Shown here piece by piece: positions 378 through 15,620 of a stretch of DNA of 15,620 bases. The stretch comes from a virus (Duplodnaviria; Heunggongvirae; Uroviricota; Caudoviricetes). The position numbers and the translations under genes are program-made. The notes under the pieces are model-generated. The model made no database searches and had not been told where the DNA came from. It worked only from the letters and a program-made list of their open reading frames with translations. The stretch lies in the IMG/VR virus record IMGVR_UViG_2711768073_000008. The stretch is one strand, 5' to 3'. Numbering within the stretch: the stretch's first letter is position 1; each line of letters starts with the position of its first letter.

Positions 378-1159
378 GCTGCCACCTTCTGCTCTGCGGC
401 TTTCTGTTTCAGGAATCCAAGAGCTTTCACTGCTTCGGCCTGTGTCAGTTCTGACGATGCGCGAATGTCGCGGCGAAATATCTGGGAACAGAGCGGCAAT
501 AAGTCGTCATCCCATGTTTTATCCAGGGCGATCAGCAGAGTGTTAATCTCCTGCATGGTTTCATCGTTTACCGGAGTGATGTCGCGTTCCGGCTGGCGTT
601 CTGCAGTGTATGCGGTATTTTCGACAATGCGCTCGGCTTCATCCTTGTCATAGATACCAGCAAATCCGAAGGCCAGGCGGGCACACTGAATCATGGCTTT
701 ATGCCGTAACATCCGTTTGGGATGCGACTGCCACGGCCCCGTGATTTCCCTGCCTTCGCGAGTTTTGAATGGTTCGCGGCGGCATTCATCCATCCATTCG
801 GTAACGCAGATCGGATGATTACGGTCCTTGCGGTAAATACGGCATGTGCAGGATTCGTTGTCCTGTTCAAAGTCCATGCCATCAAACTGCTGGTTTTCAT
901 TGATGATGCGGGACCAGCCATCAACGCCCACTACCGGAACGATGCCATTCTGCTTATCAGGAAAGGCGTAAATTTCTTTCGTCCACGGATTAAGGCCGTA
1001 CTGGTTGGCAACGATCAGTAATGCGATGAACTGCGCATCGCTGGCATCACCTTTAAATGCCGTCTGGCGAAGAGTGGTGATCAGTTCCTGTGGGTCGACA
1101 GAATCCATGCCGACGCGTTCAGCCAGCTTCCCTGCCAGCGTTGCGAGTGCTGTACTCAT
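374..1159 (-). CDS. bet: Bet (Red-beta) single-strand annealing recombinase, 261 aa
   Basis: ORF track 261 aa, [66 protein letters not shown]..., recognised as lambda Bet. Gene order exo-bet-gam as in lambda. Confidence 0.95.
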
Positions 1160-1548
1160 CCGTTTTATACCTCTGAATCAATATCAACCTGGTGGTGAGC
1201 AATGGTTTCAACCATGTACCGGATGTGTTCTGCCATGCGCTCCTGAAACTCAACATCGTCATCAAACGCACGGGTAATGGCTTTTTTGCTGGCCCCGTGG
1301 CGTTGCAAATGATCGATGCATAGCGATTCAAACAGGTGCTGGGGCAGGCCTTTTTCCATGTCGTCTGCCAGTTCTGCCTCTTTCTCTTCACGGGCGATCT
1401 GCTGGTAGTGACGCGCCCAGCTCTGAGCCTCAAGACGATCCTGAATGTAATAAGCGTTCATGGCCGAACTCCTGAAATAGCTGTGAAAATATCGCCCGCG
1501 AAATGCCGGGCTGATTAGGAAAACAGGAAAGGAGGTTAGTGAATGCTT
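1020..1548. repeat. Direct repeat copy 1 (~525 bp): gam plus the first 46 codons of bet
   Basis: Manual comparison with 2204..2727 at a fixed offset of 1184 bp: only two substitutions over the first ~440 bp, then about eight differences including one 1-bp indel in the last ~90 bp. Confidence 0.9.
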
Positions 1549-1581
1549 TTGCTTGATCTCAGTTTCAGTATTAATATCCAT
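1165..1581 (-). CDS. gam: Gam, RecBCD inhibitor (138-aa long form; internal start at 1461 gives the 98-aa GamS)
   Basis: ORF track 138 aa, [71 protein letters not shown]..., recognised as lambda Gam. Confidence 0.9.
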
Positions 1582-1679
1582 TTTTTATAAGCGTCGACGG
1601 CCTCACGAAACATCTTTTCATCGCCAATAAAAGTGGCAATAGTGAATTTTGTCTGGATAGCCATAAGTTTTTTATCCAT
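1536..1679 (-). CDS. kil: Kil (host cell-division inhibitor), 47 aa
   Basis: Internal Met of the 89-aa track ORF gives [47 protein letters not shown], close to lambda Kil as recalled. GGAG Shine-Dalgarno upstream on the minus strand (plus 1688-1691 ctcc). Confidence 0.7.
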
Positions 1680-1812
1680 TTTTGGGGACTCCTGGCTGAT
1701 TAAGTATGTCGATAAGGCGTTTCCATCCGTCACGTAATTTACGGGTGATTCGTTCAAGTAAAGATTCGGAAGGGCAGCCAGCAACAGGCCACCCTGCAAT
1801 GGCATATTGCAT
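1672..1812 (-). CDS. cIII: CIII (FtsH/HflB inhibitor), 46-aa version
   Basis: Minus-strand translation from the ATG at 1810-1812 gives [46 protein letters not shown] then stop; AAGGAG SD upstream. Too short for the ORF track. Overlaps the kil start by 8 nt. Confidence 0.75.
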   Translation of the reverse strand: MQYAIAGWPVAGCPSESLLERITRKLRDGWKRLIDILNQPGVPKNG

Positions 1813-1835
1813 GGTGTGCTCCTTATTTATACATA

Positions 1836-1860
1836 ACGAAAAACGCCTCGAGTGAAGCGT
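1836..1860 (-). terminator. Possible intrinsic terminator (tL-type) between the chimeric ORF and cIII
   Basis: Plus strand acgcctcgagtgaagcgt (1843-1860) forms a ~7-bp stem with one G-U pair when read on the minus strand, followed there by a U-run (plus-strand A-run 1839-1843). Confidence 0.3.
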
Positions 1861-1884
1861 AATTGGTATGCGGTAACGCCGCGC

Positions 1885-2343
1885 TCAGGCGGCTTTGATA
1901 GTCATATCATCTGGATCAAATATTCCTGATGTATCGATATCGGTAATTCTTATTCCTTCGCTACCATCCATTGGAGGCCATCCTTCCTGACCATTTCCAT
2001 CATTCCAGTCGAACTCACACACAACACCATATGCATTTAAGTCGCTTGAAATTGCTATAAGCAGAGCATGTTGCGCCAGCATGATTAATACAGCATTTAA
2101 TACAGAGCCGTGTTTATTGAGTCGGTATTCAGAGTCTGACCAGAAATTATTAATCTGGTGAAGTTTTTCCTCTGTCATTACGTCATGGTCGATTTCAATT
2201 TCAAATGCGATGAACTGCGCATCGCTGGCATCACCTTTAAATGCCGTCTGGCGAAGAGTGGTGATCAGTTCCTGTGGGTCGACAGAATCCATGCCGACAC
2301 GTTCAGCCAGCTTCCCAGCCAGCGTTGCGAGTGCTGTACTCAT
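1885..2343 (-). CDS. Chimeric ORF: Bet N-terminal 46 aa fused in frame to 106 aa of an unrelated gene (sits in the position of ea10 upstream of cIII); possibly a rearrangement product or pseudogene
   Basis: ORF track 152 aa; first 46 aa identical to Bet (MSTALATL...DAQFIA), then FEIEIDHDVMTEEKLHQINNFWSDSEYRLNKHGSVLNAV... The junction coincides with the repeat boundary at 2204. An internal ATG at 2178 could start a 97-aa product instead. Confidence 0.5.
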   Translation of the reverse strand: MSTALATLAGKLAERVGMDSVDPQELITTLRQTAFKGDASDAQFIAFEIEIDHDVMTEEKLHQINNFWSDSEYRLNKHGSVLNAVLIMLAQHALLIAISSDLNAYGVVCEFDWNDGNGQEGWPPMDGSEGIRITDIDTSGIFDPDDMTIKAA

Positions 2344-2727
2344 CCGTTTTATACCTCTGAATCAATATCAACCTGGTGGTGAGCAATGGTTTCAACCATG
2401 TACCGGATGTGTTCTGCCATGCGCTCCTGAAACTCAACATCGTCATCAAACGCACGGGTAATGGCTTTTTTGCTGGCCCCGTGGCGTTGCAAATGATCGA
2501 TGCATAGCGATTCAAACAGGTGCTGGGGCAGGCCTTTTTCCATGTCGTCTGCCAGTTCTGCCTCTTTCTCTTCACGGGCGATCTGCTGGTAGTGACGCGC
2601 CCAGCTCTGAGCCTCAAGACGATCCTGAATGTAATAAGCGTTCATGGCTGAACTCCTGAAAATGGCTGTGAAAAAATCGCCCGCGGAATGCCAGGCTGAT
2701 TCGGAAAACAGGAAAGGGGATTAGTGA
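2204..2727. repeat. Direct repeat copy 2 (~525 bp): second gam plus bet 5' end, flanked by unrelated sequence
   Basis: Same alignment as copy 1. The left boundary falls exactly after bet codon 46; the right end degrades just past the GamS start region. Confidence 0.9.
2349..2645 (-). CDS. gam: Second copy of Gam, short form only (GamS, 98 aa)
   Basis: ORF track 98 aa, identical to residues 41-138 of the first Gam. AGGAG SD upstream; the long-form N-terminal extension is disrupted by substitutions and an indel in this copy. Confidence 0.8.
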
Positions 2728-3400: not shown

Positions 3401-4264
3401 TCATTTCGCATCTACAATAAATAACCTGTTTATCTGGCCTTTTTTAACAGTAGCCTTTGCGGTTATAGTGAATACTGCAGATGGATCACCTTTGGTTGAT
3501 ATATATGCACTAAGAGCTCTAATATACGGGTTATTCTTCTTTCCTGCAGCTGGATCGCTAATTTCAGCAGTGATTCTCTTTTTTGAGTCATCACCATCTA
3601 AAATTATTTTAGCTGTCATATTTTGTGCATCAAATTCTGTAAGAAAAGCACGATACTCACGAAGACCGAGAACTTCATCATCATCAAGCCTATCAATTTC
3701 AGCTTTATCTCTCTCGTTAACTTTTAGAAGGCAGCCGTCAACATTTGTTGCAACACTTATCTGATCGCAAGTATTACCAATAGGTGATACTGCCTGCCTT
3801 ACAGAGGGGCGAAGCTCTACAGCCATTCGGTCAATCAAAGAGATCAACTTATCAATGGTTCCAGCATCCTTGTTTCCTAGTGCCTCTATGGCCTTTTCAA
3901 GTGACTGCTGCAAAGCTTTCATTTCATCTTTCTTGTTAGAATTTCTCGCAAAAATATATTGTAGTATTGCGCCAAGTATAGTTGCGGCGATCCCCGAGAA
4001 CAACTGGTTCTGAGTGGCGAAGTTAAGAACTGCTTCAAGAGTAAAGCAGTTAGCTTTTGCTTCGCGTGCGTAAACCTTAACTTCCTGATAATTAATGTAT
4101 TTACTATATTTTTGTGTAACAGAGAAAGAAGCTGCTGTTGAGAGAACTTTAGAAAAACCCTTTAGGGATTCTCCTAGGCAGTTCAAATCTATTTCATGAT
4201 TTAAAGCATCTTTTCCGTCATACCTAAGAGAGATTTTTATATCCTGTAAAGCGTCACAATCCAT
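3401..4264 (-). CDS. Uncharacterised 287-aa protein, AT-rich cargo gene in the position lambda uses for rexAB
   Basis: ORF track 287 aa with no recognisable family or catalytic motif. Central hydrophobic stretch [20 protein letters not shown]. Co-directional with and directly downstream of the repressor gene; ends in its own terminator. Confidence 0.75.
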
Positions 4265-4330: not shown

Positions 4331-5020
4331 TTATCCATGTTTCCTGTACGTCTGGGGCATGCTCCCAATAACCTTACCGAAGATGAACACCCGGTTCATC
4401 TCGTCTTTCTCGATCGGGTCCCACGGTGAGTAGCTCTTGTTATCAGAGATAACCAGCAGCTTATCCTTCATCATTTGCAGGCGCTTTACATGGGCGGTGT
4501 CGTCGTACAGAAACGCATAGATGCCATCACCGTCGAAAGATTTAACCGTGATATCAACGAACAGCAGATCACCTGGTTCGATCGTTCCTGACATGCTGTC
4601 ACCACGCACGTTAATGATGCGGATATTTTCTGCCTTCCTACCATCGAACATGTGACGAGCATCGTCAAACGAGTACTCAACCGAGCGTAGAACTTCTACA
4701 AACTCACGGTTGATGACTCCCGGCCCGGCACTCACTTCTATATCAAGAACGTCAATCTTAAAGTATTTGGAATGGCTGACAGTTGATTGTATTGGTTGCA
4801 CTGTACTGTCTGACATATTTCCAACGCCAGAAGATAACCATTCTGCGCGCACACCCAAAGCGTTCGCGATCTCCACGATTTTAGTTGTTTGGTTAGCTTT
4901 CCCTGTTTCGATTTTCTGAATAGCAGCTTGGCTAACCCCGACCAAATCCCCAAGCGCCTTTTGTGTAAGGCCTCGCGCTAATCTGGCTTCTTTAAGTCTT
5001 TCTGAGAGTGTTGTTTTCAT
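4331..5020 (-). CDS. CI-like prophage repressor (N-terminal HTH, C-terminal S24 LexA-like autopeptidase), 229 aa from the ATG at 5018-5020
   Basis: MKTTLSERLKEARLARGLTQKALGDLVGVSQAAIQKIETGKANQ (HTH); candidate Ala-Gly cleavage site in EVSAGPG; GDSM serine and AHVKRL lysine motifs. The track ORF (to 5086) has a 22-aa N-terminal extension that is probably not translated; no SD precedes the ATG, so the transcript may be leaderless. Confidence 0.85.
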   Translation of the reverse strand: MKTTLSERLKEARLARGLTQKALGDLVGVSQAAIQKIETGKANQTTKIVEIANALGVRAEWLSSGVGNMSDSTVQPIQSTVSHSKYFKIDVLDIEVSAGPGVINREFVEVLRSVEYSFDDARHMFDGRKAENIRIINVRGDSMSGTIEPGDLLFVDITVKSFDGDGIYAFLYDDTAHVKRLQMMKDKLLVISDNKSYSPWDPIEKDEMNRVFIFGKVIGSMPQTYRKHG

Positions 5021-5124
5021 AGTCCAAATGTACAACCAAGGTTTTATTTCATCAAACGAAAATGGTTGTTGGCTAAAAACAACCATAGTTTTAATCTTGA
5101 TTCAAATTAACCACGGAGGTTGTT
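5021..5124. promoter_or_regulatory. OR-type operator/divergent promoter region between repressor and cro-like genes
   Basis: Repeated half-sites: ACAACCA 5032-5038, TGGTTGT 5063-5069, ACAACCAT 5079-5086, GGTTGTT 5116-5122. Contains a perfect 9-7-9 palindrome atggttgtt-ggctaaa-aacaaccat (5062-5086). Confidence 0.6.
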
Positions 5125-5355
5125 ATGAACCCAGCTATCAAAACAGCGATCAATATCGTTGGTTCACAAAAGAAACTGGGCGCTGCCTGCGAAGTTTCAC
5201 AGCAGGCCGTCTATAAGTGGCTTCACAACAAAGCAAAGGTATCCCCTGAACATGTCGGCAGCATTGTTACGGCTACTGGTGGAATAGTGAAGGCATACCA
5301 GATTCGCCCGGATCTTCCGAAGTTGTTTCCACATACCGAAAAGAACGCAGCTTAA
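5125..5355 (+). CDS. Cro-like HTH regulator (76 aa)
   Basis: ORF track 76 aa, MNPAIKTAINIVGSQKKLGAACEVSQQAVYKWLH (HTH). GGAGG SD 6 nt upstream; divergent from the repressor. Confidence 0.8.
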   Translation: MNPAIKTAINIVGSQKKLGAACEVSQQAVYKWLHNKAKVSPEHVGSIVTATGGIVKAYQIRPDLPKLFPHTEKNAA

Positions 5356-5424: not shown

Positions 5425-5964
5425 ATGCAACAACTTACATACCAACAGACTAGCGGATTTAGCCCGACTGCGGTGATAAATCGTTCTCAAACAAAACAGG
5501 TGCCAGGCCACGAAAAAATCCGTGATGCCGTCCGCGCCTGGTCGGCTGAAGATAATCAGGATGTCGTTGCCACACTCATTGTGAATGAGTATCGGGAGCA
5601 GGGCGGCGGCACCATCGATTTCCCTGATGATGTCAGCCGTGCACGCCAGAAGCTGTTCCGCTTCCTCGATAACAAATTCGATTCTGAAAAATACCGAAAT
5701 AACGTGCGTGAACTGACCCCGGCAATTCTGGCGGTACTACCGCTGGAATATCGCGGCCACCTGGTTGAGCAGGATAGCTACATGGCTCGGCTGGCTGAAA
5801 TGGAAAAGGAACTCAGTGAGGCAAAACAGGCTGTCATTCTCAACGCACCACGCCACCAGAAACTGAAGGAGATGAGTGAAGGCATTGTGTCGATGTTTCG
5901 TGTGGACCCGGATCTGGCTGGTCCACTGATGGCGATGGTCACCACCATGCTGGGGGCAATATGA
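5425..5964 (+). CDS. YdaT-like / phage CII(CP76)-like regulatory protein (179 aa)
   Basis: ORF track 179 aa. Motifs NEYREQGGGTIDFP and ELTPAILAVLPLEYRGH resemble Rac-prophage YdaT as recalled. Position immediately downstream of cro; good SD (aaggag). Confidence 0.6.
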   Translation: MQQLTYQQTSGFSPTAVINRSQTKQVPGHEKIRDAVRAWSAEDNQDVVATLIVNEYREQGGGTIDFPDDVSRARQKLFRFLDNKFDSEKYRNNVRELTPAILAVLPLEYRGHLVEQDSYMARLAEMEKELSEAKQAVILNAPRHQKLKEMSEGIVSMFRVDPDLAGPLMAMVTTMLGAI

Positions 5965-6041: not shown

Positions 6042-6971
6042 ATGGCAAACACTGCTGAGATATTCAATTTTCCAGTGCCGGATGTGGCACAAAAGGAGCC
6101 GCGCGTGGCAGATCTCGATGATGGTTATACGCGCATTGCAAATGAGTTGCTGGAAGCTGTAATGCTGGCCGGATTAACACAGCACCAGCTTCTGGTCTTC
6201 CTGGCTGTCATGCGTAAAACATATGGCTTTAATAAAAAACTGGATTGGGTGAGCAACGAGCAACTTTCCGAGTTGACCGGGATATTGCCGCACAAGTGTT
6301 CTGCTGCAAAAAGTGTTCTGGTAAAGCGTGGGATTTTTATTCAGAGCGGGCGGAATACCGGCATTAATAATGTGATCAGTGAATGGTTAACATTACCCGA
6401 ATCAGGTAAGAAAAATAAAGTTTACCTGAAAGAGGTAAATTTACCTGAATCAGGTAAGAAAATTTTACCCAAATCAGGTAAAGACGTTTACCCGAATCAG
6501 GTAAATACAAAAGACAAACTAACAAAAGACAATATAAAACCTTTTTCGTCCGAGAATTCTGTCGAATCCTCTGACCAGCCAGAAAACGATCTTCCTGTGG
6601 TGAAACCGGATGCTGCAATTCAGAGCGGCAGCAAGTGGGGGACAGCAGAAGACCTGACCGCCGCAGAGTGGATGTTTGACATGGTGAAGACCATTGCGCC
6701 ATCAGCCAGAAAACCGAATTTTGCAGGGTGGGCTAACGATATCCGCCTGATGCGTGAACGTGACGGACGTAACCACCGCGACATGTGTGTACTGTTCCGC
6801 TGGGCATGCCAGGACAACTTCTGGTCCGGTAACGTGCTGAGTCCGGCCAAACTCCGCGACAAGTGGACCCAGCTCGAAATCAACCGTAACAAGCAACAGG
6901 CAGGCATGATAGCCAGCAAACCAAAACTCGACCTGACAAACACTGACTGGATTTACGGGGTGGATTTATGA
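6042..6971 (+). CDS. O: Replication initiator O (mosaic: divergent N-terminal origin-binding half, lambda-like C-terminus), ~309 aa from the ATG at 6042
   Basis: MANTAEIFNFPVPDVAQKEPRVADLDDGYTRIANELLEAV parallels lambda O (...ERNVADLDDGYARLSNMLLEA...); C-terminal ...DNFWSGNVLSPAKLRDKWTQLEINRNKQQ... is lambda-like. GGGAGG SD at 6032-6037. The track's upstream start (5961) would overlap the preceding gene. Confidence 0.85.
   Translation: MANTAEIFNFPVPDVAQKEPRVADLDDGYTRIANELLEAVMLAGLTQHQLLVFLAVMRKTYGFNKKLDWVSNEQLSELTGILPHKCSAAKSVLVKRGIFIQSGRNTGINNVISEWLTLPESGKKNKVYLKEVNLPESGKKILPKSGKDVYPNQVNTKDKLTKDNIKPFSSENSVESSDQPENDLPVVKPDAAIQSGSKWGTAEDLTAAEWMFDMVKTIAPSARKPNFAGWANDIRLMRERDGRNHRDMCVLFRWACQDNFWSGNVLSPAKLRDKWTQLEINRNKQQAGMIASKPKLDLTNTDWIYGVDL
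6392..6505. repeat. Replication origin iterons inside O (five ~18-bp TTACC-N-AATCAGGTAA repeats, one degenerate), followed by an A/T-rich tract to ~6550
   Basis: ttacccgaatcaggtaag (6393-6410), ttacctgaaagaggtaaa (6422-6439, degenerate), ttacctgaatcaggtaag (6441-6458), ttacccaaatcaggtaaag (6466-6484), ttacccgaatcaggtaaa (6488-6505). Each is an internal inverted repeat. The layout mirrors ori-lambda inside O. Confidence 0.75.
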
Positions 6972-7669
6972 AAAACATCGCCGCACAGATGGTTAACTTT
7001 GACCGTGAGCAGATGCGTCGGATCGCCAACAACATGCCGGAACAGTACGACGAAAAGCCGCAGGTACAGCAGGTAGCGCAGATCATCAACGGTGTGTTCA
7101 GCCAGTTACTGGCAACTTTCCCGGCGAGCCTGGCTAACCGTGACCAGAATGAACTGAACGAAATCCGCCGCCAGTGGGTTCTGGCTTTTCGGGAAAATGG
7201 GATCACCACGATGGAACAGGTTAACGCTGGAATGCGCGTAGCCCGTCGGCAGAATCGACCATTCCTGCCATCACCCGGGCAGTTTGTTGCCTGGTGCCGT
7301 GAAGAAGCATCCGTTATTGCCGGACTGCCAAACGCCAGCGAGCTGGTTGATATGGTTTACGAGTATTGCCGGAAGCGTGGACTGTATCCGGATGCAGAGT
7401 CTTATCCGTGGAAATCAAACGCGCACTACTGGCTGGTTACCAACCTGTACCAGAACATGCGGGCCAATGCGCTGACTGACGCGGAATTACGGCGTAAGGC
7501 TGCCGATGAGCTGACCTGTATGACCGCGCGAATTAACCGTGGTGAGGCGATACCTGAACCAGTAAAACAACTTCCTGTCATGGGCGGTAGACCTCTAAAT
7601 CGTGCACAGGCTTTGGCGAAGATCGCAGAAATCAAAGCTAAGTTCGGACTGAAAGGAGCAAGTGTATGA
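6968..7669 (+). CDS. P: Replication protein P (DnaB helicase loader), 233 aa
   Basis: ORF track 233 aa, MKNIAAQMVNFDREQMRRIANNMPEQYDEKPQVQQVAQIINGVFSQLL..., recognised as near-identical to lambda P. Start overlaps the O stop (ATGA). Confidence 0.95.
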   Translation: MKNIAAQMVNFDREQMRRIANNMPEQYDEKPQVQQVAQIINGVFSQLLATFPASLANRDQNELNEIRRQWVLAFRENGITTMEQVNAGMRVARRQNRPFLPSPGQFVAWCREEASVIAGLPNASELVDMVYEYCRKRGLYPDAESYPWKSNAHYWLVTNLYQNMRANALTDAELRRKAADELTCMTARINRGEAIPEPVKQLPVMGGRPLNRAQALAKIAEIKAKFGLKGASV

Positions 7670-7968
7670 CGGGCAAAGAGGCAATTATTCATTACCTGGG
7701 GACGCATAAGAGCTTCTGTGCGCAGGACGTTGCTGCGGTAACAGGCGCAACAGTAACCAGTATAAATCAGGCTGCGGTTAAAATGGCACGGGCAGGAATC
7801 TTAGTCATTGATGGTAAGGTCTGGCGAACGGTGTATTACCGCTTCGCTACCAGGGAAGAACGGGAAGGAAAGGTGAGCACGAATCTGATTTTCAAGGAGT
7901 GTCGCCAGAGTGCCGCGATGAAACGAGTGTTGGCAGTGTATGGAGATATGAACTTAAACTTGCTGTGA
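7666..7968 (+). CDS. ren: Ren (Rex-exclusion resistance protein), 100 aa
   Basis: ORF track MTGKEAIIHYLGTHKSFCAQDVAAVTGATVTSINQAAVKMARAGILVIDGKVWRTVYYRFATREEREGK..., matching lambda Ren as recalled. Overlaps the P stop. Confidence 0.9.
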   Translation: MTGKEAIIHYLGTHKSFCAQDVAAVTGATVTSINQAAVKMARAGILVIDGKVWRTVYYRFATREEREGKVSTNLIFKECRQSAAMKRVLAVYGDMNLNLL

Positions 7969-8216
7969 CGGTTTTCATCGGTAACACACCATGTAATCTA
8001 GCAGTCAGCTTAGAAATAGGAGCGGCAGTTAAAGATTTTTCAGTTAGTAGAAAATTACTGTTATTGCAGGGATCTAATCACCGGAGAGTCGTTCCATTTG
8101 TCTTATGATTACCTGATGTCCGTTAGTTCGTTGGTAATCACCGTTTTTGTTAGAGAAGTAAGCATCGCTGACAAAATATTCTCAACGATGCCTGCTTTAT
8201 TGCCACTACAAATTAA

Positions 8217-9719
8217 TTAAATTGCATCTGCAAACTCTGGGGTTTTTCGCTCAGGTATAATTGATGAGTTGTTGTTGTCACTTTTTTTATTTTCATGATT
8301 ACGAATAGCCAATGACTCATTAAAGTCTTTTGCGACTGCTGTCTCAATAAATTCAATTTCTGAATCAGAGTGTTTTTTAAGAGCTTCTTTGATCTCATCC
8401 AGAGTAACATAGAAAAACTCTTTTCTACGATTTACAAGATTGACTCTCTTTTTATCGAAGACATCATGTAGTTTTTTTTCTAATGATGGAGCGTCCTCCG
8501 AATAAATCATAGCATGCACATCAAAAATAAATGGAACAGATGCATCACCGAGCTCATTTACACGGTCTTGCGGATCAAGACGTCGTGTCATGCCTATTTT
8601 ATAAACATTCTCCCCAAAAGAACCTATGTTCGAAATAATATAAACATGACCTTGTTTGGTTTGTTGTGCCATGGATAATGCTCTTTGATGCTTTGATTCA
8701 GCCTGCGACAAACTCTGTTCTAGTTCGGCAATGCGATTTTCGAGGCGCTGCTTCATGTCACCAGTAACTTTTTCCATTTCCTTTCTTGCAGCTTCAATTG
8801 CTTTTTTATAACGGCGCTCTTCTGCCTCTGCGTCTTGCATGGCCTTTTCTATTTCTCGTTGTGCACGCTCCTCCTCTCTCATTTGTGCCCTTATTTCTGC
8901 CTGTTCTTCTTTTTCTTTCTGTTTTTGCTCACGATATTCATGGGTAAGCCACAATTCCTCAAGTTTTTTATTGAGGTATTTAGTGTTTATATATATGTGA
9001 TTTTGCTCGTTTAGTTTATTTATGGCCTCAAATGCCTTTGTGATGCGTTCTTCCATTTTAGTGATATTTTTCCACGTGCAATTGCTAATTGCAGCATCAC
9101 ATTCATTATTAAATGCTCTAGTAGTTAACCTGATATTTCTGTCTGTCATTTTTTTACCCTCTGCTCGAGAGCCTTCAACAGTCCATTGGGTTGTACAATA
9201 TACTGCGCCAGAGTGGGTTTTATCCCGCAGCATTAATTTCTGTTCATCCCTGATGGATTTTATTTTGTTTTTAAATTGCTCTGAATCTTCAAAATTAAAA
9301 TGAGGTTCGTAAAATCCTAGCTCGGCTAGCTCAACATCTTCTGAATAAATAGAAATTTGCCTTACTAGTTTATCATATATTTCTTTCTTCTCTTTATAAG
9401 TTCTTCTTAGCTCTTGGATTTGTTTATTGATACCATCCATTTTTTCAATGGTGTTTGTTAGTTCATTATTGGCATTTTCTTTTACTTTTTGGGATTCTTC
9501 TTTTATTATGGAGCATTCTTGCTCTGTTTTCTCAATAAGCTTCTTACATTCTTCTTCTACATTAAAATAATCTGCAAAGCGAGATTTGTATTCTTCATTT
9601 TTTTGATTGCTATCACTTAATTCTAATTGTATTTTTTTGATGCGTTTGATTGCAGCTATATAAAGAACAAGAACAACCAATAAAAATATGATTGCAAGTA
9701 ATAGTGGAGTTTGAGTCAT
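8217..9719 (-). CDS. 500-aa cargo protein: N-terminal TM anchor, long coiled coil, C-terminal GIY-YIG/T5orf172 (MUG113)-like domain; candidate anti-phage defence or abortive-infection effector
   Basis: ORF track 500 aa. N-terminus MTQTPLLLAIIFLLVVLVLYIAAIKRIKK is hydrophobic; an E/K/Q/R-rich heptad-like region runs to ~aa 350; the C-terminal GHVYIISNIGSFGENVYKIGMTRRLDPQDRVNELGDASVPFIFDVHA...NRRKEFFYVTLDEIKEAL fits the GIY...YIG/T5orf172 pattern (encoded ~8380-8651). AT-rich, opposite strand to flanking ren and ybcN; SD aagga 8 nt before the ATG. Confidence 0.85.
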   Translation of the reverse strand: MTQTPLLLAIIFLLVVLVLYIAAIKRIKKIQLELSDSNQKNEEYKSRFADYFNVEEECKKLIEKTEQECSIIKEESQKVKENANNELTNTIEKMDGINKQIQELRRTYKEKKEIYDKLVRQISIYSEDVELAELGFYEPHFNFEDSEQFKNKIKSIRDEQKLMLRDKTHSGAVYCTTQWTVEGSRAEGKKMTDRNIRLTTRAFNNECDAAISNCTWKNITKMEERITKAFEAINKLNEQNHIYINTKYLNKKLEELWLTHEYREQKQKEKEEQAEIRAQMREEERAQREIEKAMQDAEAEERRYKKAIEAARKEMEKVTGDMKQRLENRIAELEQSLSQAESKHQRALSMAQQTKQGHVYIISNIGSFGENVYKIGMTRRLDPQDRVNELGDASVPFIFDVHAMIYSEDAPSLEKKLHDVFDKKRVNLVNRRKEFFYVTLDEIKEALKKHSDSEIEFIETAVAKDFNESLAIRNHENKKSDNNNSSIIPERKTPEFADAI

Positions 9720-9899
9720 TCGTGCTATTCCTTACGGACAATTTAAGACGTTTTTATTAAATCCTGTTCAATGTGTATGCGGGTGATTGCCACCGCTTAC
9801 AATCTTCATAATTATCAGTTAGATAGACTCTCTAGTAAATAATTTCATTTTTTGCAATATTCTTGTTTAATATTTCAATTTATGAAATGAACTCTTTAT

Positions 9900-9925
9900 C
9901 CTTTCAAGGCGAAAGGTTTTTTCTT
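9900..9925 (+). terminator. Weak terminator-like hairpin upstream of ybcN (tR2 position)
   Basis: cctttc (9900-9905) / gaaagg (9911-9916) stem with 5-nt loop followed by tttttt (9917-9922). The stem is short and AT-rich, so this is tentative. Confidence 0.3.
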
Positions 9926-10144
9926 CGGAAATATTTGCTCTCGTGTGACGTATAAAGACCTTTGATTTTCAAAAATCAGTAGGGAATAATATAGTTACTG
10001 TCGGCCTGAACACCCGGTGGTGGGGTTGCGCTAAACGGGGACGTTTATGCGCACATACAATCCAAACTCTCTTCTCCCTTCACAGATGCAGAAATGCACC
10101 TGCAATTCTTTGCATCTAGCGTTTGACCTCTGCGGAGGTGAAGC

Positions 10145-10600
10145 GTGAACCTCCCACAAGACGGTATCAAATTGCATCGCGGTAACTTCACCGCTATCGG
10201 TCAGCAGATCCAGCCTTATCTGGAGGACGGAAAATGCTTTCGCATGGTGCTTAAACCGTGGCGCGAGAGACGCAGTCTTTCCCAGAATGCACTCAGCCAC
10301 ATGTGGTACAGCGAAATCAGTGAATACCTCATCAGCAGGGGTAAAACGTTCGCCACTCCAGCTTGGGTAAAAGATGCTCTCAAACACACATATCTCGGTT
10401 ATGAAACCAAAGACCTGGTTGATGTCGTAACCGGTGATATCACCACTATCCAGTCGTTACGCCATACCTCCGATCTTGATACCGGAGAGATGTATGTCTT
10501 CCTGTGTAAGGTTGAAGCCTGGGCGGTGAATATTGGCTGCCACCTGACTATTCCGCAGAGCTGCGAGTTCCAGCTGCTCCGCGACAAGCAGGAGGCGTAA
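10145..10600 (+). CDS. ybcN: NinB-family protein (DLP12 YbcN-like), 151 aa, GTG start
   Basis: ORF track 151 aa. [20 protein letters not shown] parallels the lambda NinB RSLDQN motif; recalled as near-identical to E. coli DLP12 YbcN. GGAGG SD at 10134-10138. Confidence 0.7.
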
Positions 10601-10770
10601 TGGCTACACCGCTTATTCGTGTCATGAACGGACACATCTACAGAGTATCAAATCGTCGTAAGCGTAAGCCTGAGCTGAAGCCATCCGAAATACCAACACT
10701 GCTCGGATATACCGCTAGCCTGGTTGATAAAAAATGGTTGCGACTGGCAGCAAGGAGGAATCATGGCTGA
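10600..10770 (+). CDS. ninE: NinE-like small protein (56 aa)
   Basis: Manual translation from the ATG at 10600: [56 protein letters not shown] then stop. Start overlaps the ybcN stop (TAATG). Below the ORF-track size cut-off. Confidence 0.55.
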   Translation: MATPLIRVMNGHIYRVSNRRKRKPELKPSEIPTLLGYTASLVDKKWLRLAARRNHG

Positions 10771-11053
10771 TTTGAGAAAAGCAGCGCGTGGTCGGGAATG
10801 CCAGGTAAGAATCCCTGGCGTATGTAATGGCAATTCTGAAACGTCTGTACTGGCACATATCCGGCTGGCTGGATTGTGCGGTACCGGTATCAAACCGCCA
10901 GACCTGATTGCCACCATTGCATGTTCTGCCTGCCACGACGAAATCGACCGCCGCACACATTTTGTCGATGCTGCATATGCAAAAGAATGCGCGCTGGAAG
11001 GTATGGCGAGAACACAGGTTATCTGGCTGAAAGAGGGGGTTATTAAGGCGTGA
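10763..11053 (+). CDS. ybcO: YbcO-like protein (DUF1364, Cys-rich putative nuclease), 96 aa
   Basis: From the internal Met of the track ORF: [64 protein letters not shown]..., matching DLP12 YbcO as recalled. AAGGAGG SD upstream. Confidence 0.8.
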
Positions 11054-11412
11054 ATACCTACAGTATCACATTACCCTGGCCTCCGAGCAATAATCGCTAT
11101 TACCGCCATAATCGCGGGCGCACGCACGTCAGTGCAGAGGGGCAGGCATACCGCGATAACGTCGCCCGAATCATTAAAAACGCAATGCTGGATATCGGCC
11201 TGGCTATGCCTGTGAAAATCCGCATTGAGTGCCACATGCCGGATCGCCGTCGCCGTGACCTGGATAATCTGCAAAAAGCCGCTTTTGACGCACTCACCAA
11301 AGCAGGTTTCTGGCTGGATGATGCTCAGGTCGTTGATTACCGCGTTGTGAAGATGCCTGTTACCAAAGGTGGGAGGCTGGAACTGACCATCACCGAAATG
11401 GGGAATGAATGA
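11050..11412 (+). CDS. rusA: RusA Holliday-junction resolvase, 120 aa
   Basis: ORF track 120 aa, [46 protein letters not shown]...[25 protein letters not shown], recognised as RusA. Confidence 0.9.
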
Positions 11413-11549
11413 TGTTTGAGTTTTATATGGCAGAACTTCTTCGCCACCGCTGGGGGCATCTGCGCTTATATCGTTTCCCCGGTTCTGTTTTGACCGATTA
11501 CCGAATACTGAAGAATTACGCCAAAACCCTGACAGGAGCAGGAGTATGA
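11409..11549 (+). CDS. ylcG: YlcG-like small protein (46 aa)
   Basis: Manual translation [46 protein letters not shown] then stop; overlaps the rusA stop. Matches DLP12 ylcG as recalled. Confidence 0.6.
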
Positions 11550-12206: not shown

Positions 12207-13289
12207 TTAGAACTGGTAAACCATACCTACAGCAACGATATCATCGGTAGCAACGCCAGATGCTTTCGTGAAATCGCTCTTATCAATCAGGTTGATTTTG
12301 TAATCAACAAAAGTGGACATATTTTTGTTGAAGTAATAGGTTGCACCTACATCAATATATTCAACCAGGTCCTGATCACCCCACGCACCCAAGTCTTTTC
12401 CTTTAGATTGCAGGTAAGCAACGGACGGACGCAGACCGAAGTCGAACTGATATTGTGCAACTACTTCGAAGTTTTGTGCTTTGTTGGCAATATGGTTATT
12501 ACCAAAAACAGTCATGTTCTGGGTTTCAGAATAGGTGGTAGCCAGATAGATGTTGTTCGCATCATATTTCAGACCAGCTGCCCATACTTCAGCATTTTGA
12601 CCAGATGCATTCAGGCTGTTGTTACCGTAGATAACCTGATTATTAGTGCGGTCAGATTTAGCATAGGTTGCACCTACACCGAATCCTTCATACTCATAAG
12701 TAGTGGAGAAACCGAAACCATCACCATTAGCTTCAGTTACGTCAGTGCGGTCATTTTTACCCTGATACTGAGCAGCAAAGTTCAGACCATCAACCAGACC
12801 AAAGAAGTCGTTGTTACGATAAGTTGCAACACCAGTGGTGCGACCAGTCATGAACACATCTGTTTGGGTCCAGGTATCGCCACCGAATTCTGGCAGAACG
12901 TCAGTCCACGCACCGATGTCATATGCTACACCGTAGTTACGGCCGTAATCGATTGAGCCGTAGTCCCCGAATTTCAGGCCTGCAAATGCAAGACGGGTTT
13001 TGTCTTTGGAGGAGCCTTGAGATTCAGCGCGGTTGCCTTTGAATTCATATTCCCACTGACCGAAACCAGTCAGTTGATCGTTGATTTGGGTTTCACCTTT
13101 GAAGCCAAGACGGGCATAAGTAGTATCACCATCATCTGCATCATTAGAGGAGAAGTAGTGCTTGGCATTAACTTTCCCATATAGATCCAGCTTGTTACTG
13201 TCTTTATTATAAATTTCAGCTGCCTGAGCAGACATCGCCATCAGTACTGATGCAGCTACAGCAGAAATTGCCACTGTTAATTTTTTCAT
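12207..13289 (-). CDS. nmpC: Outer-membrane general porin, OmpC/OmpF/PhoE family (NmpC/Lc-like), 360 aa, intact
   Basis: ORF track 360 aa; signal peptide [29 protein letters not shown]; porin hallmarks (GxxYxF-rich beta strands, C-terminal ...VAVGMVYQF). Sits between Q and the lysis genes as in DLP12; no IS interruption visible. Confidence 0.9.
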
Positions 13290-13717
13290 CGTGAGCCCTT
13301 TTTTTTGAACTATTATTAAAAAATGATGTCACTGCGCGATAAATATTCATCTAATCAATGTGATTATTTCAAGATGTAAGTTTTGGTTTCTCGTTTGATT
13401 TGTGAAGTAGATCTCTATTTTTATCTGAACTTTTTTCTATCGAATCCTATTCATGGATCTTGGCTGAATAAAAATAAATCTATTAGCCAATTTATATTAA
13501 CGGCTGTTATTTATAAGTGCTCTGTAATTTGAAGGTTCAATTTAAATCGGCTAAAAATAACACTGGAAATTATTTGTTGGTTATTTGTTGAGATTTGCTT
13601 ATGTATTTGTAGTGGTGTTTTCAATACTCGGTAGCATTCTCGCAAATATCATTTTGTGGTTTACGTACGTAAAAAATTGGTTATGCTGTTAAGAGTGGTT
13701 ACTTCGTCACACAGCTT

Positions 13718-15080: not shown

Positions 15081-15374
15081 TTATTGTGAGCAATACACAC
15101 GCGCTTCCAGCGGAGTATAAATGCCTAAAGTAATAAAACCGAGAAATCCATTTACGAATGTTTGCTGGGTTTCTGTTTTAACAACATTTTCTGCGCCGCC
15201 ACAAATTTTGGCTGCATCAACAGTTTTCTCCTGTCCAATTCCCGAAACGAAGAAATGATGGGTGATGGTTTCCTTTGGTGTTACTGCTGTCGGTTTGTTT
15301 CCAACAGTAAACGTCTGTTGAGCACATCCTGTAATAAGCATTGCCAGAGCGGCAGAAAACAACATTTTTTTCAT
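15081..15374 (-). CDS. borD: Bor-family lipoprotein (serum resistance), 97 aa from the ATG at 15372-15374
   Basis: MKKMLFSAALAMLITGCAQQTFTVGNKPTAVTPKETITHHFFVSGIGQEKTVDAAKICGGAENVVK... with lipobox ITGC. The track ORF has a 16-aa upstream extension. Confidence 0.85.
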   Translation of the reverse strand: MKKMLFSAALAMLITGCAQQTFTVGNKPTAVTPKETITHHFFVSGIGQEKTVDAAKICGGAENVVKTETQQTFVNGFLGFITLGIYTPLEARVYCSQ

Positions 15375-15620
15375 CTTATTATCCTGCATTGTTAAAAACG
15401 GCAGAATCCTATGTGACAACAATTAAACGATAGTTAAATGGATTGATGAAAATTAAAACTATATAGGTGGATGCTCAGCCTATTGGAGGAGGGGGGGCAC
15501 TCAGAATCCTGTGGAATGAAATAAACCGCTCTATCTGTCCATTACCCTTTTAGCTGCGCTGTATCGTCGCCGTATTCCCGCATTAACCATGACCGTAGCC
15601 CGACGGGGAATTCCTTCTGC

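Follow-up and report, generated by a model that had tools for sequence, protein, structure and literature searches.

A gene very probably encoding the SNIPE (PD-λ-1) anti-phage nuclease beside ren in a lambdoid prophage

The window, the whole stretch of 15,620 nucleotides that was analysed, contains a DLP12-like lambdoid prophage region of E. coli in which a single large gene lies on the minus strand between ren and the first gene of the nin region. The organization of this locus is as follows:

7666..7968, plus strand: ren, 100 aa, left neighbour, named from the RefSeq annotation of near-identical loci
7933..9960, no strand: variable SNIPE cassette, 2028 bp, GC 0.352, delimited by blastn against related prophages and including an alternative ren 3' end (7933..7968)
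7969..8216, minus strand: non-coding DNA 3' of snipe, 248 bp, travelling with the cassette
8217..9719, minus strand: snipe / PD-λ-1 gene, 1503 bp, 500 aa, ATG start
9720..9960, minus strand: non-coding region, probably the upstream side of snipe, with its presumed own promoter
10047..10148, plus strand: ylcH-like ORF, 33 aa, conserved core just 5' of ybcN (WP_001303586.1 in K-12 and many other genomes)
10145..10600, plus strand: ybcN (NinB-like), right neighbour and first gene of the nin region

The AT-rich block with its 500-residue minus-strand reading frame, already described in the initial annotation, is clearly set apart in composition. The GC content of the gene is 0.350, against 0.503 in the O-P-ren flank and 0.484 in the ylcH-Q flank. 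An AGGA motif resembling a Shine-Dalgarno sequence can be read 9 nt 5' of the ATG. The boundaries of the block, in contrast, had been placed wrongly at 7969..10144. Comparison of the ren junction with six related prophages by blastn, as had been proposed, gives 7933..9960: homology to the DLP12-type prophages ends at 7932 and restarts at 9961 (9954 in one of them). The ylcH ORF, formerly counted in the block, belongs to the conserved core outside the cargo. On the left side, alignment and translation reveal that the last 12 codons of ren consist of cassette-specific sequence, so that this gene receives a different 3' end from the cassette. Around the cassette, direct or inverted terminal repeats were represented by short chance-level matches only, and an exchange by homologous recombination at the conserved flanks fits better than transposition or site-specific insertion.

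The non-coding parts of the cassette are shared with Escherichia phage PhiR26_1, in which ren and snipe are also spaced by 248 bp and the region upstream of snipe is 98% conserved. A consensus scan of 9720..9960 gave a single sigma-70-like element on the minus strand (TTTACT-17-GATAAT, 9839..9811), and a hairpin followed by a T-run, resembling a terminator for the plus strand, is located at 9900..9916. This promoter call is tentative, because the number of promoter and terminator matches in the scan was no higher than the shuffled expectation. In 7969..8216, neither the terminator scan nor Rfam gave a convincing candidate. Over the whole window, Rfam returned nothing in or near the cassette and one match, the λ cIII thermoregulator at 1767..1825.

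The encoded protein can be divided into five parts, based on hydropathy, Pfam and an AlphaFold2 (AF2) model:

residues ~6-24: transmembrane (TM) helix, the sole strongly hydrophobic stretch (Kyte-Doolittle 19-mer maximum of 3.37)
residues ~25-133: helical stalk (AF2 model)
residues ~143-260: globular DUF4041 domain (AF2 pLDDT >90)
residues ~246-355: helical linker
residues 357-450: GIY-YIG (T5orf172/MUG113) nuclease domain, followed by a low-confidence tail

The single N-terminal TM helix that had been proposed is present, as no second hydrophobic segment follows the maximum at residues 6-24, and in the sequence it is followed by a positive patch (KRIKK). A hydrophobic N-terminal helix is shared by 56 of the 58 homologues with 50-57% identity. 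The AF2 model consists of a helix from residue 6, a stalk, a confident globular middle domain and an alpha/beta C-terminal domain. The ~300 residues of coiled coil in the initial annotation are therefore incorrect: the globular DUF4041 domain parts two long helical segments. This domain is recognized by Pfam at residues 198-252 (PF13250, E = 1.2e-19, 70.4 bits for a cut-off of 27).

The proposed GIY-YIG/T5orf172-like C-terminus is substantiated by Pfam matches to MUG113 (residues 373-449, E = 1e-18) and T5orf172 (residues 357-449, E = 1.2e-16). Both families are members of the GIY-YIG superfamily. The modelled domain has the expected alpha/beta fold, with a three-stranded sheet bearing the GIY and YIG strands. 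Four of the motifs quoted for it, VYIISN (359-364), YKIGMTRR (373-380), ELG (389-391) and PF (396-397), were found as described, and the fifth reads KEFFYV (433-438) rather than REFFYV. Residues Y360, K374, G376, R379, R380, E414, N427 and N430 do not vary among the 58 homologues. The role of E414 has been tested experimentally (Saxton et al., PMC13190303), and catalytic roles of the other invariant residues are suggested by analogy. A search of the PDB with the protein sequence returned no relative, only low-complexity helical matches (E >0.07).

These features identify the gene, with a probability of about 0.93, as a near-identical copy of SNIPE (PD-λ-1), a membrane-anchored nuclease defence carried in a lambdoid prophage cargo slot. 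A search against PADLOC had been advised: residues 1-485 align with positions 1-485 of the 491 in model PDLC03976 (PD-Lambda-1; E = 9.4e-198, 656 bits), and the second PD-Lambda-1 model, PDLC03977, also matches over its full length (E = 2e-194). The C-terminal GIY-YIG nuclease domain with the catalytic Glu414, by which a SNIPE protein is recognized, is present. In addition, 497 of the 500 residues (99.4%) are identical to a CDS annotated as 'PD-lambda-1' in PhiR26_1, the substitutions relative to that copy being L77Q, V447L and S483N. Position 447 lies in the nuclease domain and is a Val in 56/58 homologues; the change to Leu is conservative. Together with the Pfam matches, these results bear out the earlier proposal of a foreign single-gene anti-phage module at a moron position, combining a membrane anchor and a nuclease effector.

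The PD-λ-1 protein of ECOR26 (RCP76574.1) is encoded by a 1503-bp gene, with HHpred domains at residues 197-252, 357-448 and 373-449 (Vassallo et al. 2022, PMC9519451). Length and domain coordinates of the protein described here are essentially the same, and the nine residues targeted by the published SNIPE mutagenesis (E414, E223, W257, L253, E264, K305, T319, I308 and N250) all occur at the same numbers. Judging from its length, its domain coordinates, the numbering of its residues and the record of PhiR26_1, the protein is probably identical, or nearly so, to the one used experimentally. RCP76574.1 is absent among the accessions listed for its sequence cluster. Our guess, judging by the name of the phage, is that PhiR26_1 was derived from ECOR26; the literature found under this phage name concerned unrelated Pseudomonas phages only. 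The 500-aa sequence occurs without any change on 249 contigs, and the cluster at 90% identity has 975 members. Copies with 99% identity carry the RefSeq label 'SNIPE associated domain-containing protein'.

The system is thus already known: it was discovered in 2022, its mechanism was published in 2026, a RefSeq name is in use and PADLOC detects it. The remark that such proteins have no assigned mechanism is outdated, as PD-λ-1 has been renamed SNIPE and characterized by Saxton et al. (Nature 2026, 653:861, PMC13190303). Our literature search found nothing treating DUF4041 and T5orf172 together, and nothing on DUF7946.

According to that work, the SNIPE nuclease is anchored in the membrane and cuts the DNA of siphoviruses while it is being injected, with ManYZ and the tape measure protein of the phage as its guides; protection depends on E414. 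It is placed in the inner membrane, with a periplasmic N-terminus and the nuclease on the cytoplasmic side, and PhoA-LacZα data on its topology are given. It is found in association with ManYZ, the mannose permease that serves as the route of λ DNA entry, while DUF4041 contacts the incoming tape measure protein and also binds DNA. The membrane tether, together with an apparent auto-inhibition at that site, keeps the enzyme from attacking host DNA; without its TM helix, the protein becomes toxic and cleaves the chromosome of the host. Only siphoviruses are affected, a prophage already inside the cell is not, and phage specificity has been proposed to lie in the N-terminus and DUF4041. As the cell survives infection, the authors consider SNIPE a direct defence (PMC13190303). 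Defence by PD-λ-1 was seen under the native promoter, with unchanged adsorption (Vassallo et al., PMC9519451).

These experiments concern a protein at least 99.4% identical to the one described here, and the present allele is known from its sequence and structure prediction. By extension, the protein would be anchored in the inner membrane, meet ManYZ and the incoming tape measure protein there and degrade the phage genome during its injection. Its gene would be transcribed from its own promoter in the lysogen, convergent with the early-right operon. For the prophage, this may amount to protection from superinfection by λ-like and other siphoviruses, with its own induction left unharmed. A lesser possibility is that the Q77/L447/N483 allele, common in nature, differs from the laboratory one in phage range.

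The initial annotation also offered abortive infection, in which the anchored nuclease is released or activated and destroys host and phage DNA, killing the infected cell. Single-gene nuclease defences are often abortive, and the chromosome damage caused by the TM-less form shows that the enzyme is capable of harming its own cell. This explanation is nevertheless very improbable, as it is contradicted by the published direct-defence data on an essentially identical protein. Time-lapse and radiolabel experiments showed the injected DNA being degraded with the host DNA uncleaved, and phage-genome foci became ~30-fold fewer with a parallel reduction in lysis. Moreover, SNIPE does not disturb the replication of an induced prophage, and PD-λ-1 cultures are reported to keep growing at an MOI >1.

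An equally small chance is given to an inactive or drifting remnant, recognizable as SNIPE but nonfunctional or unexpressed in a decaying prophage. The prophage resembles DLP12, which is defective in K-12. An IS3 is inserted at the ren-cassette junction in the closest complete genome, an IS2 is associated with the block in one genome, and 1.18 kb of the gam-kil region is unusually duplicated in the window. V447L, furthermore, falls at a near-invariant column. Against such decay, the reading frame is intact and full-length, and the catalytic and DNA-binding signature residues are all conserved. The abundance of the exact protein and of its cluster argues in the same direction, as do the conserved upstream region and the occurrence of the 99.4% identical copy at the same place in a viable phage (PhiR26_1, host K-12 MG1655). 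Least probable of all is a housekeeping function for the phage, as a ParA- or SMC-like segregation ATPase or with T5orf172 acting as a DNA-binding regulator. In several records, homologues do go by names such as 'chromosome segregation ATPase', 'ParA' or SMC-like protein, and weak matches to SMC/Rad50 models are driven by the coiled coil. However, the NCBIfam SMC/Rad50/ASRP matches reach only 7-20 bits for cut-offs of 300-1087 and cover helical regions only, and the Pfam scan revealed no ATPase domain, hence none of the heads of an ABC-type ATPase. The gene is also accessory rather than core, because the whole block was found in 131 of 5426 complete E. coli genomes, compared with ~2750 for 118 bp of the conserved right flank (10027..10144), and because different cargo occupies the same slot elsewhere.

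In comparison with known systems, the ECOR26 SNIPE has the same TM - DUF4041 - GIY-YIG order, coordinates and length, with at most a few substitutions in the present copy, and the PhiR26_1 copy is likewise lambdoid and adjacent to ren. Distant homologues occur in temperate phages, like Salmonella phage ES18 (gp19), Clostridium phage CDMH1 (gp42), Streptococcus phage EJ-1 and Klebsiella prophage-like phages. They have the DUF4041 and T5orf172 core in common (33-51% identity over 80-95% of the protein), with divergent N-terminal regions. The GIY-YIG nucleases SLX1, UvrC (N-terminal domain) and I-TevI show ~12% sequence identity to the protein. SNIPE has no SLX4-type partner or RING domain, and it is targeted by its membrane tether, with no reliance on the sequence or structure of the DNA.

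Zorya and Kiwa have been compared with SNIPE (PMC13190303). As membrane-localised defences that sense the entry of phage DNA, they too work at the inner membrane, where and when the genome is injected. Both are multi-protein systems, consisting of a MotAB-like ZorAB motor and of KwaAB, respectively, with components unrelated to SNIPE. A weak match to ZorA (E = 0.055) was not significant. HK97 gp15 is also prophage-encoded, expressed in the lysogen and protective against incoming siphoviruses, and it likewise depends on the tape measure protein (PMC13190303). HK97 gp15 blocks entry without a nuclease, whereas SNIPE admits the DNA and then cuts it. The λ morons SieB and Rex are grouped with the prophage superinfection-exclusion proteins as well.

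With the discovery and mechanism of SNIPE being published, the locus adds little biology overall. Beyond the published work it provides the cassette boundaries, the rewritten ren end, the prevalence among complete E. coli genomes and a sketch of the cargo slot. It had been assumed that ren is followed by the nin genes in λ and DLP12-type phages; this does not apply to DLP12 itself, where emrE-ylcJ-ybcK-ybcL-ybcM occupies the same slot. In related prophages, emrE-ybcK-ybcLM, an inverse autotransporter and a SIR2 protein were encountered, among others. Uncharacterised occupants in this small sample comprise a 472-aa hypothetical protein on the opposite strand, a hypothetical pair, the SIR2-family protein and an alpha/beta hydrolase. 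Tentatively, the P/ren-ylcH junction might be a hotspot of cassette exchange between conserved linkers (the ren 3' end at ~7932 and a hairpin-containing leader at 9961..10046), some occupants of which could be undescribed anti-phage genes. The ren-ylcH slot could accordingly serve as a source of additional candidate defence genes. Behind the cassette, PhiR26_1 has a second insert of 1.85 kb that contains Rha and is absent from the window, and 89 bp (10027..10115 here) are duplicated around this insert.

The window represents the early region of a lambdoid E. coli prophage that resembles DLP12. Based on ORF calls, Pfam and the RefSeq annotation of near-identical loci, its left part carries, in order, bet, gam, kil, a cI-type S24 repressor and a cro-like gene, followed by a YdaT-domain gene at the cII position, O, P, ren and a variable block. 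This block is followed by ylcH, ybcN, ninE, ybcO, rusA, ylcG and Q, and beyond Q by an ompC/nmpC-like porin gene, the S/R/Rz lysis genes and bor/iss. At the cro and cII positions (5125..5355 and 5425..5964, both plus strand) there are YdaS-like (PF15943) and YdaT-like (PF06254) genes instead of λ Cro/CII, a likeness to Rac/DLP12-type immunity regions. The main genes discussed are:

3401..4264, minus strand: 287-aa gene, Pfam DUF7946 (3.8e-55) and DUF7947 (1.4e-18) only
4331..5086, minus strand: cI-type S24 repressor (ORF calling, Pfam, RefSeq)
7666..7968: ren (ORF calling, RefSeq)
8217..9719, minus strand: snipe, 500 codons, ATG start
10047..10148: ylcH (RefSeq)
12207..13289, minus strand: OmpC/NmpC-like porin (Pfam Porin_1, 3.1e-153)
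15081..15422, minus strand: Bor/Iss serum-resistance lipoprotein

ORF calling confirmed the 500-codon gene of the initial annotation, which had also recognized it as compositionally foreign; its GC is 0.350, versus 0.503 in O-P-ren and 0.484 in the nin-Q segment. This gene is already known: it is a textbook copy of PD-λ-1, a widely annotated defence system whose mechanism has been explained and which was renamed SNIPE by Saxton et al. (bioRxiv 10.1101/2025.11.03.685801; Nature 2026;653:861-9, PMC13190303). Its product aligns over the full length with the two PADLOC models for PD-Lambda-1 (E = 9.4e-198 and 2e-194) and also matches PHROG 1847. The three suspected Pfam families are all found, well over their gathering cut-offs:

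residues 198-252: DUF4041, E = 1.2e-19
residues 357-449: T5orf172, E = 1.2e-16
residues 373-449: MUG113, E = 1e-18

PD-λ-1 was discovered in ECOR26 (protein RCP76574.1, encoded at 49060..50562 of contig QOXL01000020); its defence was validated with the native promoter, and phage adsorption was unchanged (Vassallo et al. 2022, PMC9519451). That gene has the same length as ours, 1503 bp, and its HHpred domain coordinates (DUF4041 197-252, T5orf172 357-448, MUG113 373-449) essentially equal the Pfam ones. All SNIPE residues numbered in PMC13190303 (E414, E223, W257, L253, E264, K305, T319, I308 and N250) recur at identical positions in the window protein. Escherichia phage PhiR26_1 (PV340555.1, host K-12 MG1655) carries, adjoining ren, a CDS annotated “PD-lambda-1” that is identical at 497/500 positions; an ECOR26 origin of this phage is suggested just by how it is named, and searching the literature for the phage returned nothing relevant. 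In RefSeq, some 99%-identical copies are labelled “SNIPE associated domain-containing protein”. The exact protein occurs in 249 contigs, and its 90%-identity cluster has 975 members. PADLOC, PHROG, length, domain coordinates, residue numbering, PhiR26_1 and RefSeq names agree that this is not an unnamed DUF protein, and the earlier remark that such architectures have no assigned mechanism is out of date.

The proposed N-terminal membrane anchor is supported by a sole hydrophobic segment (residues ~6-24, then KRIKK), present as a helix in 56 of the 58 aligned homologues (50-57% identity). The ~300-residue coiled coil does not hold as described. The AlphaFold2 model (58 homologues as input, mean pLDDT 78) has an N-terminal helix starting at residue 6, a long helix at 54-133, a globular region at ~143-260 that includes DUF4041 (pLDDT >90), two long helices within 246-355 and, at the C-terminus, an alpha/beta domain. 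The central part is thus a globular domain carried by helical stalks. Foldseek gave no significant match with the whole model, because the long helices dominate. Y360, K374, G376, R379, R380, E414, N427 and N430, invariant in 58/58 homologues, form the expected catalytic constellation.

The mechanism is described in the literature for a near-identical protein (PMC13190303), not for this allele. Defence is lost with E414A or upon deletion of DUF4041, which supplies DNA binding. Without its TM helix, SNIPE binds the nucleoid and cuts it, which makes the protein toxic. With SNIPE, phages adsorb normally and labelled λ DNA gets into the cell, but E414-dependent degradation turns it into a smear; phage-genome foci are ~30-fold fewer and lysis is reduced in step. 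A resident λ prophage is induced normally. Proximity labelling finds SNIPE beside ManYZ before infection and, during infection, beside the λ tape measure protein. Of the BASEL phages, it acts on siphoviruses only, irrespective of ManYZ. In the authors' model, self and non-self are told apart by location, the nuclease being held at the genome-injection site and off the chromosome. The DUF4041 gain-of-function mutations E223K, L253H and W257R strengthen defence against Bas14-18; in our alignment 17/58 homologues have Arg at the W257 position, in agreement with the published remark that gain-of-function residues occur naturally.

The initial interpretation as a defence gene is essentially right, and the observation behind it is confirmed. 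An abortive-infection effector, as then also considered, is contradicted by these data, which the authors class as direct defence (PMC13190303). A dead remnant is unlikely: the frame is intact, the residues are conserved and a viable phage carries the same gene. The names “chromosome segregation ATPase/ParA” given to some homologues are coiled-coil artefacts, as Pfam finds no ATPase domain and the SMC/Rad50 matches of the window protein fall far under cut-offs. Compared with PhiR26_1, the window protein differs by Q77, L447 and N483. Homologues vary at positions 77 and 483; position 447, in a nuclease-domain helix, is Val in 56/58, which makes L447 an unusual but conservative change. As the exact protein is common in public assemblies, this allele is expected to be functional.

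The block was first placed at 7969-10144. When 7000..11500 is compared by blastn with six related loci, homology to DLP12-type prophages (K-12, 28RC1) reaches 7932 and sets in again at 9961, or at 9954 in MLI106K1, which lacks ren. This puts the cassette at 7933..9960 (2028 bp). It supplies the last 12 ren codons (7933..7968; ...RVLAVYGDMNLNLL, versus a different DLP12-type 3′ end), so that Ren gets an alternative C-terminus from the SNIPE cassette. An IS3 in the closest complete genome sits exactly at the ren-cassette junction (6740..7902 of that locus), with window 7934-7939 duplicated on either side; ren of K-12 DLP12 is also broken by IS3, elsewhere (about window 7755).

The segment 9961..10144 is conserved core and not upstream DNA of the insert. 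It opens with a short hairpin, TTGATTTTCAAAAATCA (9961..9977), includes ylcH, and its leader before ylcH-ybcN (9961..10115) is common to prophages with wholly different cargo. The 118 bp preceding ybcN have a match in about 2750/5426 complete E. coli genomes, the whole block in 131/5426. In PhiR26_1, SNIPE is followed by an extra 1.85 kb (Rha and two small ORFs), with a copy of the 89 bp of window 10027..10115 on each side (6670..6758 and 8604..8692 of that locus), which fits cassette exchange via recombination at a conserved linker. The leader looks like the linker where cassettes are swapped; a repeat search found no terminal repeats of transposition type flanking the cassette.

The cargo position had been recognized correctly, and the case is stronger than was then apparent, as nine other sampled prophages all carry cargo other than SNIPE between P/ren and ylcH. 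DLP12-type phages do not run straight from ren into the nin genes, contrary to what had been supposed:

emrE-ylcJ-ybcK-ybcL-ybcM: K-12 DLP12, 28RC1
emrE-ybcK-P22AR fragment-hypothetical: EC17CM6, JNE082640
1302-aa inverse autotransporter: MLI106K1
inverse autotransporter, IS66 and alpha/beta hydrolase: ST131
two hypotheticals: UK_Dog_Liverpool (L007 4919..5928)
SIR2-family protein: E. coli OW1E2 (L011 3456..5387)
472-aa hypothetical, opposite strand: E. coli S1-INA-02-A (L012 4372..5790)

The SIR2-family protein, the 472-aa hypothetical and the hypothetical pair are candidates for other defence cargo; this slot, from which more candidates may come, is the one lead worth noting.

An AGGA motif lies 9 nt 5′ of the snipe ATG. 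One minus-strand sigma-70-like match (TTTACT-17-GATAAT, 9839..9811) is present, in a scan that overall is not above shuffled expectation. The active PD-λ-1 clone of Vassallo has a 282-bp flank on one side (PMC9519451); if this is the upstream side, the promoter is within 9720..10001. Inside the cassette, at 9900..9916, lies a plus-strand hairpin with a T-run, which could, speculatively, act on rightward pR transcripts.

The 287-aa DUF7946 gene lies in a second AT-rich patch (GC 0.384), directly beside the cI-type repressor at the rexAB position of λ. It is hypothetical in RefSeq, has a weak PADLOC match to the candidate system PDC-S42 (1.5e-4), and a literature search for DUF7946 found no mention. 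Other prophages have a HipA-family kinase or a lipoprotein in its place. The gene may be a further defence or moron gene expressed in the lysogen.

Sequence within 1020..2727 is directly duplicated, the period being ~1184 bp (1020-1319 versus 2204-2503, 99% match; 1475-1542 versus 2660-2727, 90%). As a result, gam is present twice, at 1165..1461 and 2349..2645, with 98/98 aa identical. The two genes flank kil, the cIII thermoregulator (1767..1825, minus strand; Rfam RF01804) and a DUF2528 ORF (1885..2343) in which the first ~47 codons are a copy of the bet 5′ end. The duplicated 1.18 kb is absent from the closest complete genomes and represents either a joint formed by recombination between lambdoid modules, two in number, or an artefact of the assembly.

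The porin and Bor/Iss genes are two more opposite-strand morons of the classical kind. The 113-aa TTG-start bor/iss ORF is probably over-extended, the annotated iss having 97 aa. The DNA after the porin gene is AT-rich (GC ~0.31 at 13200-13600).
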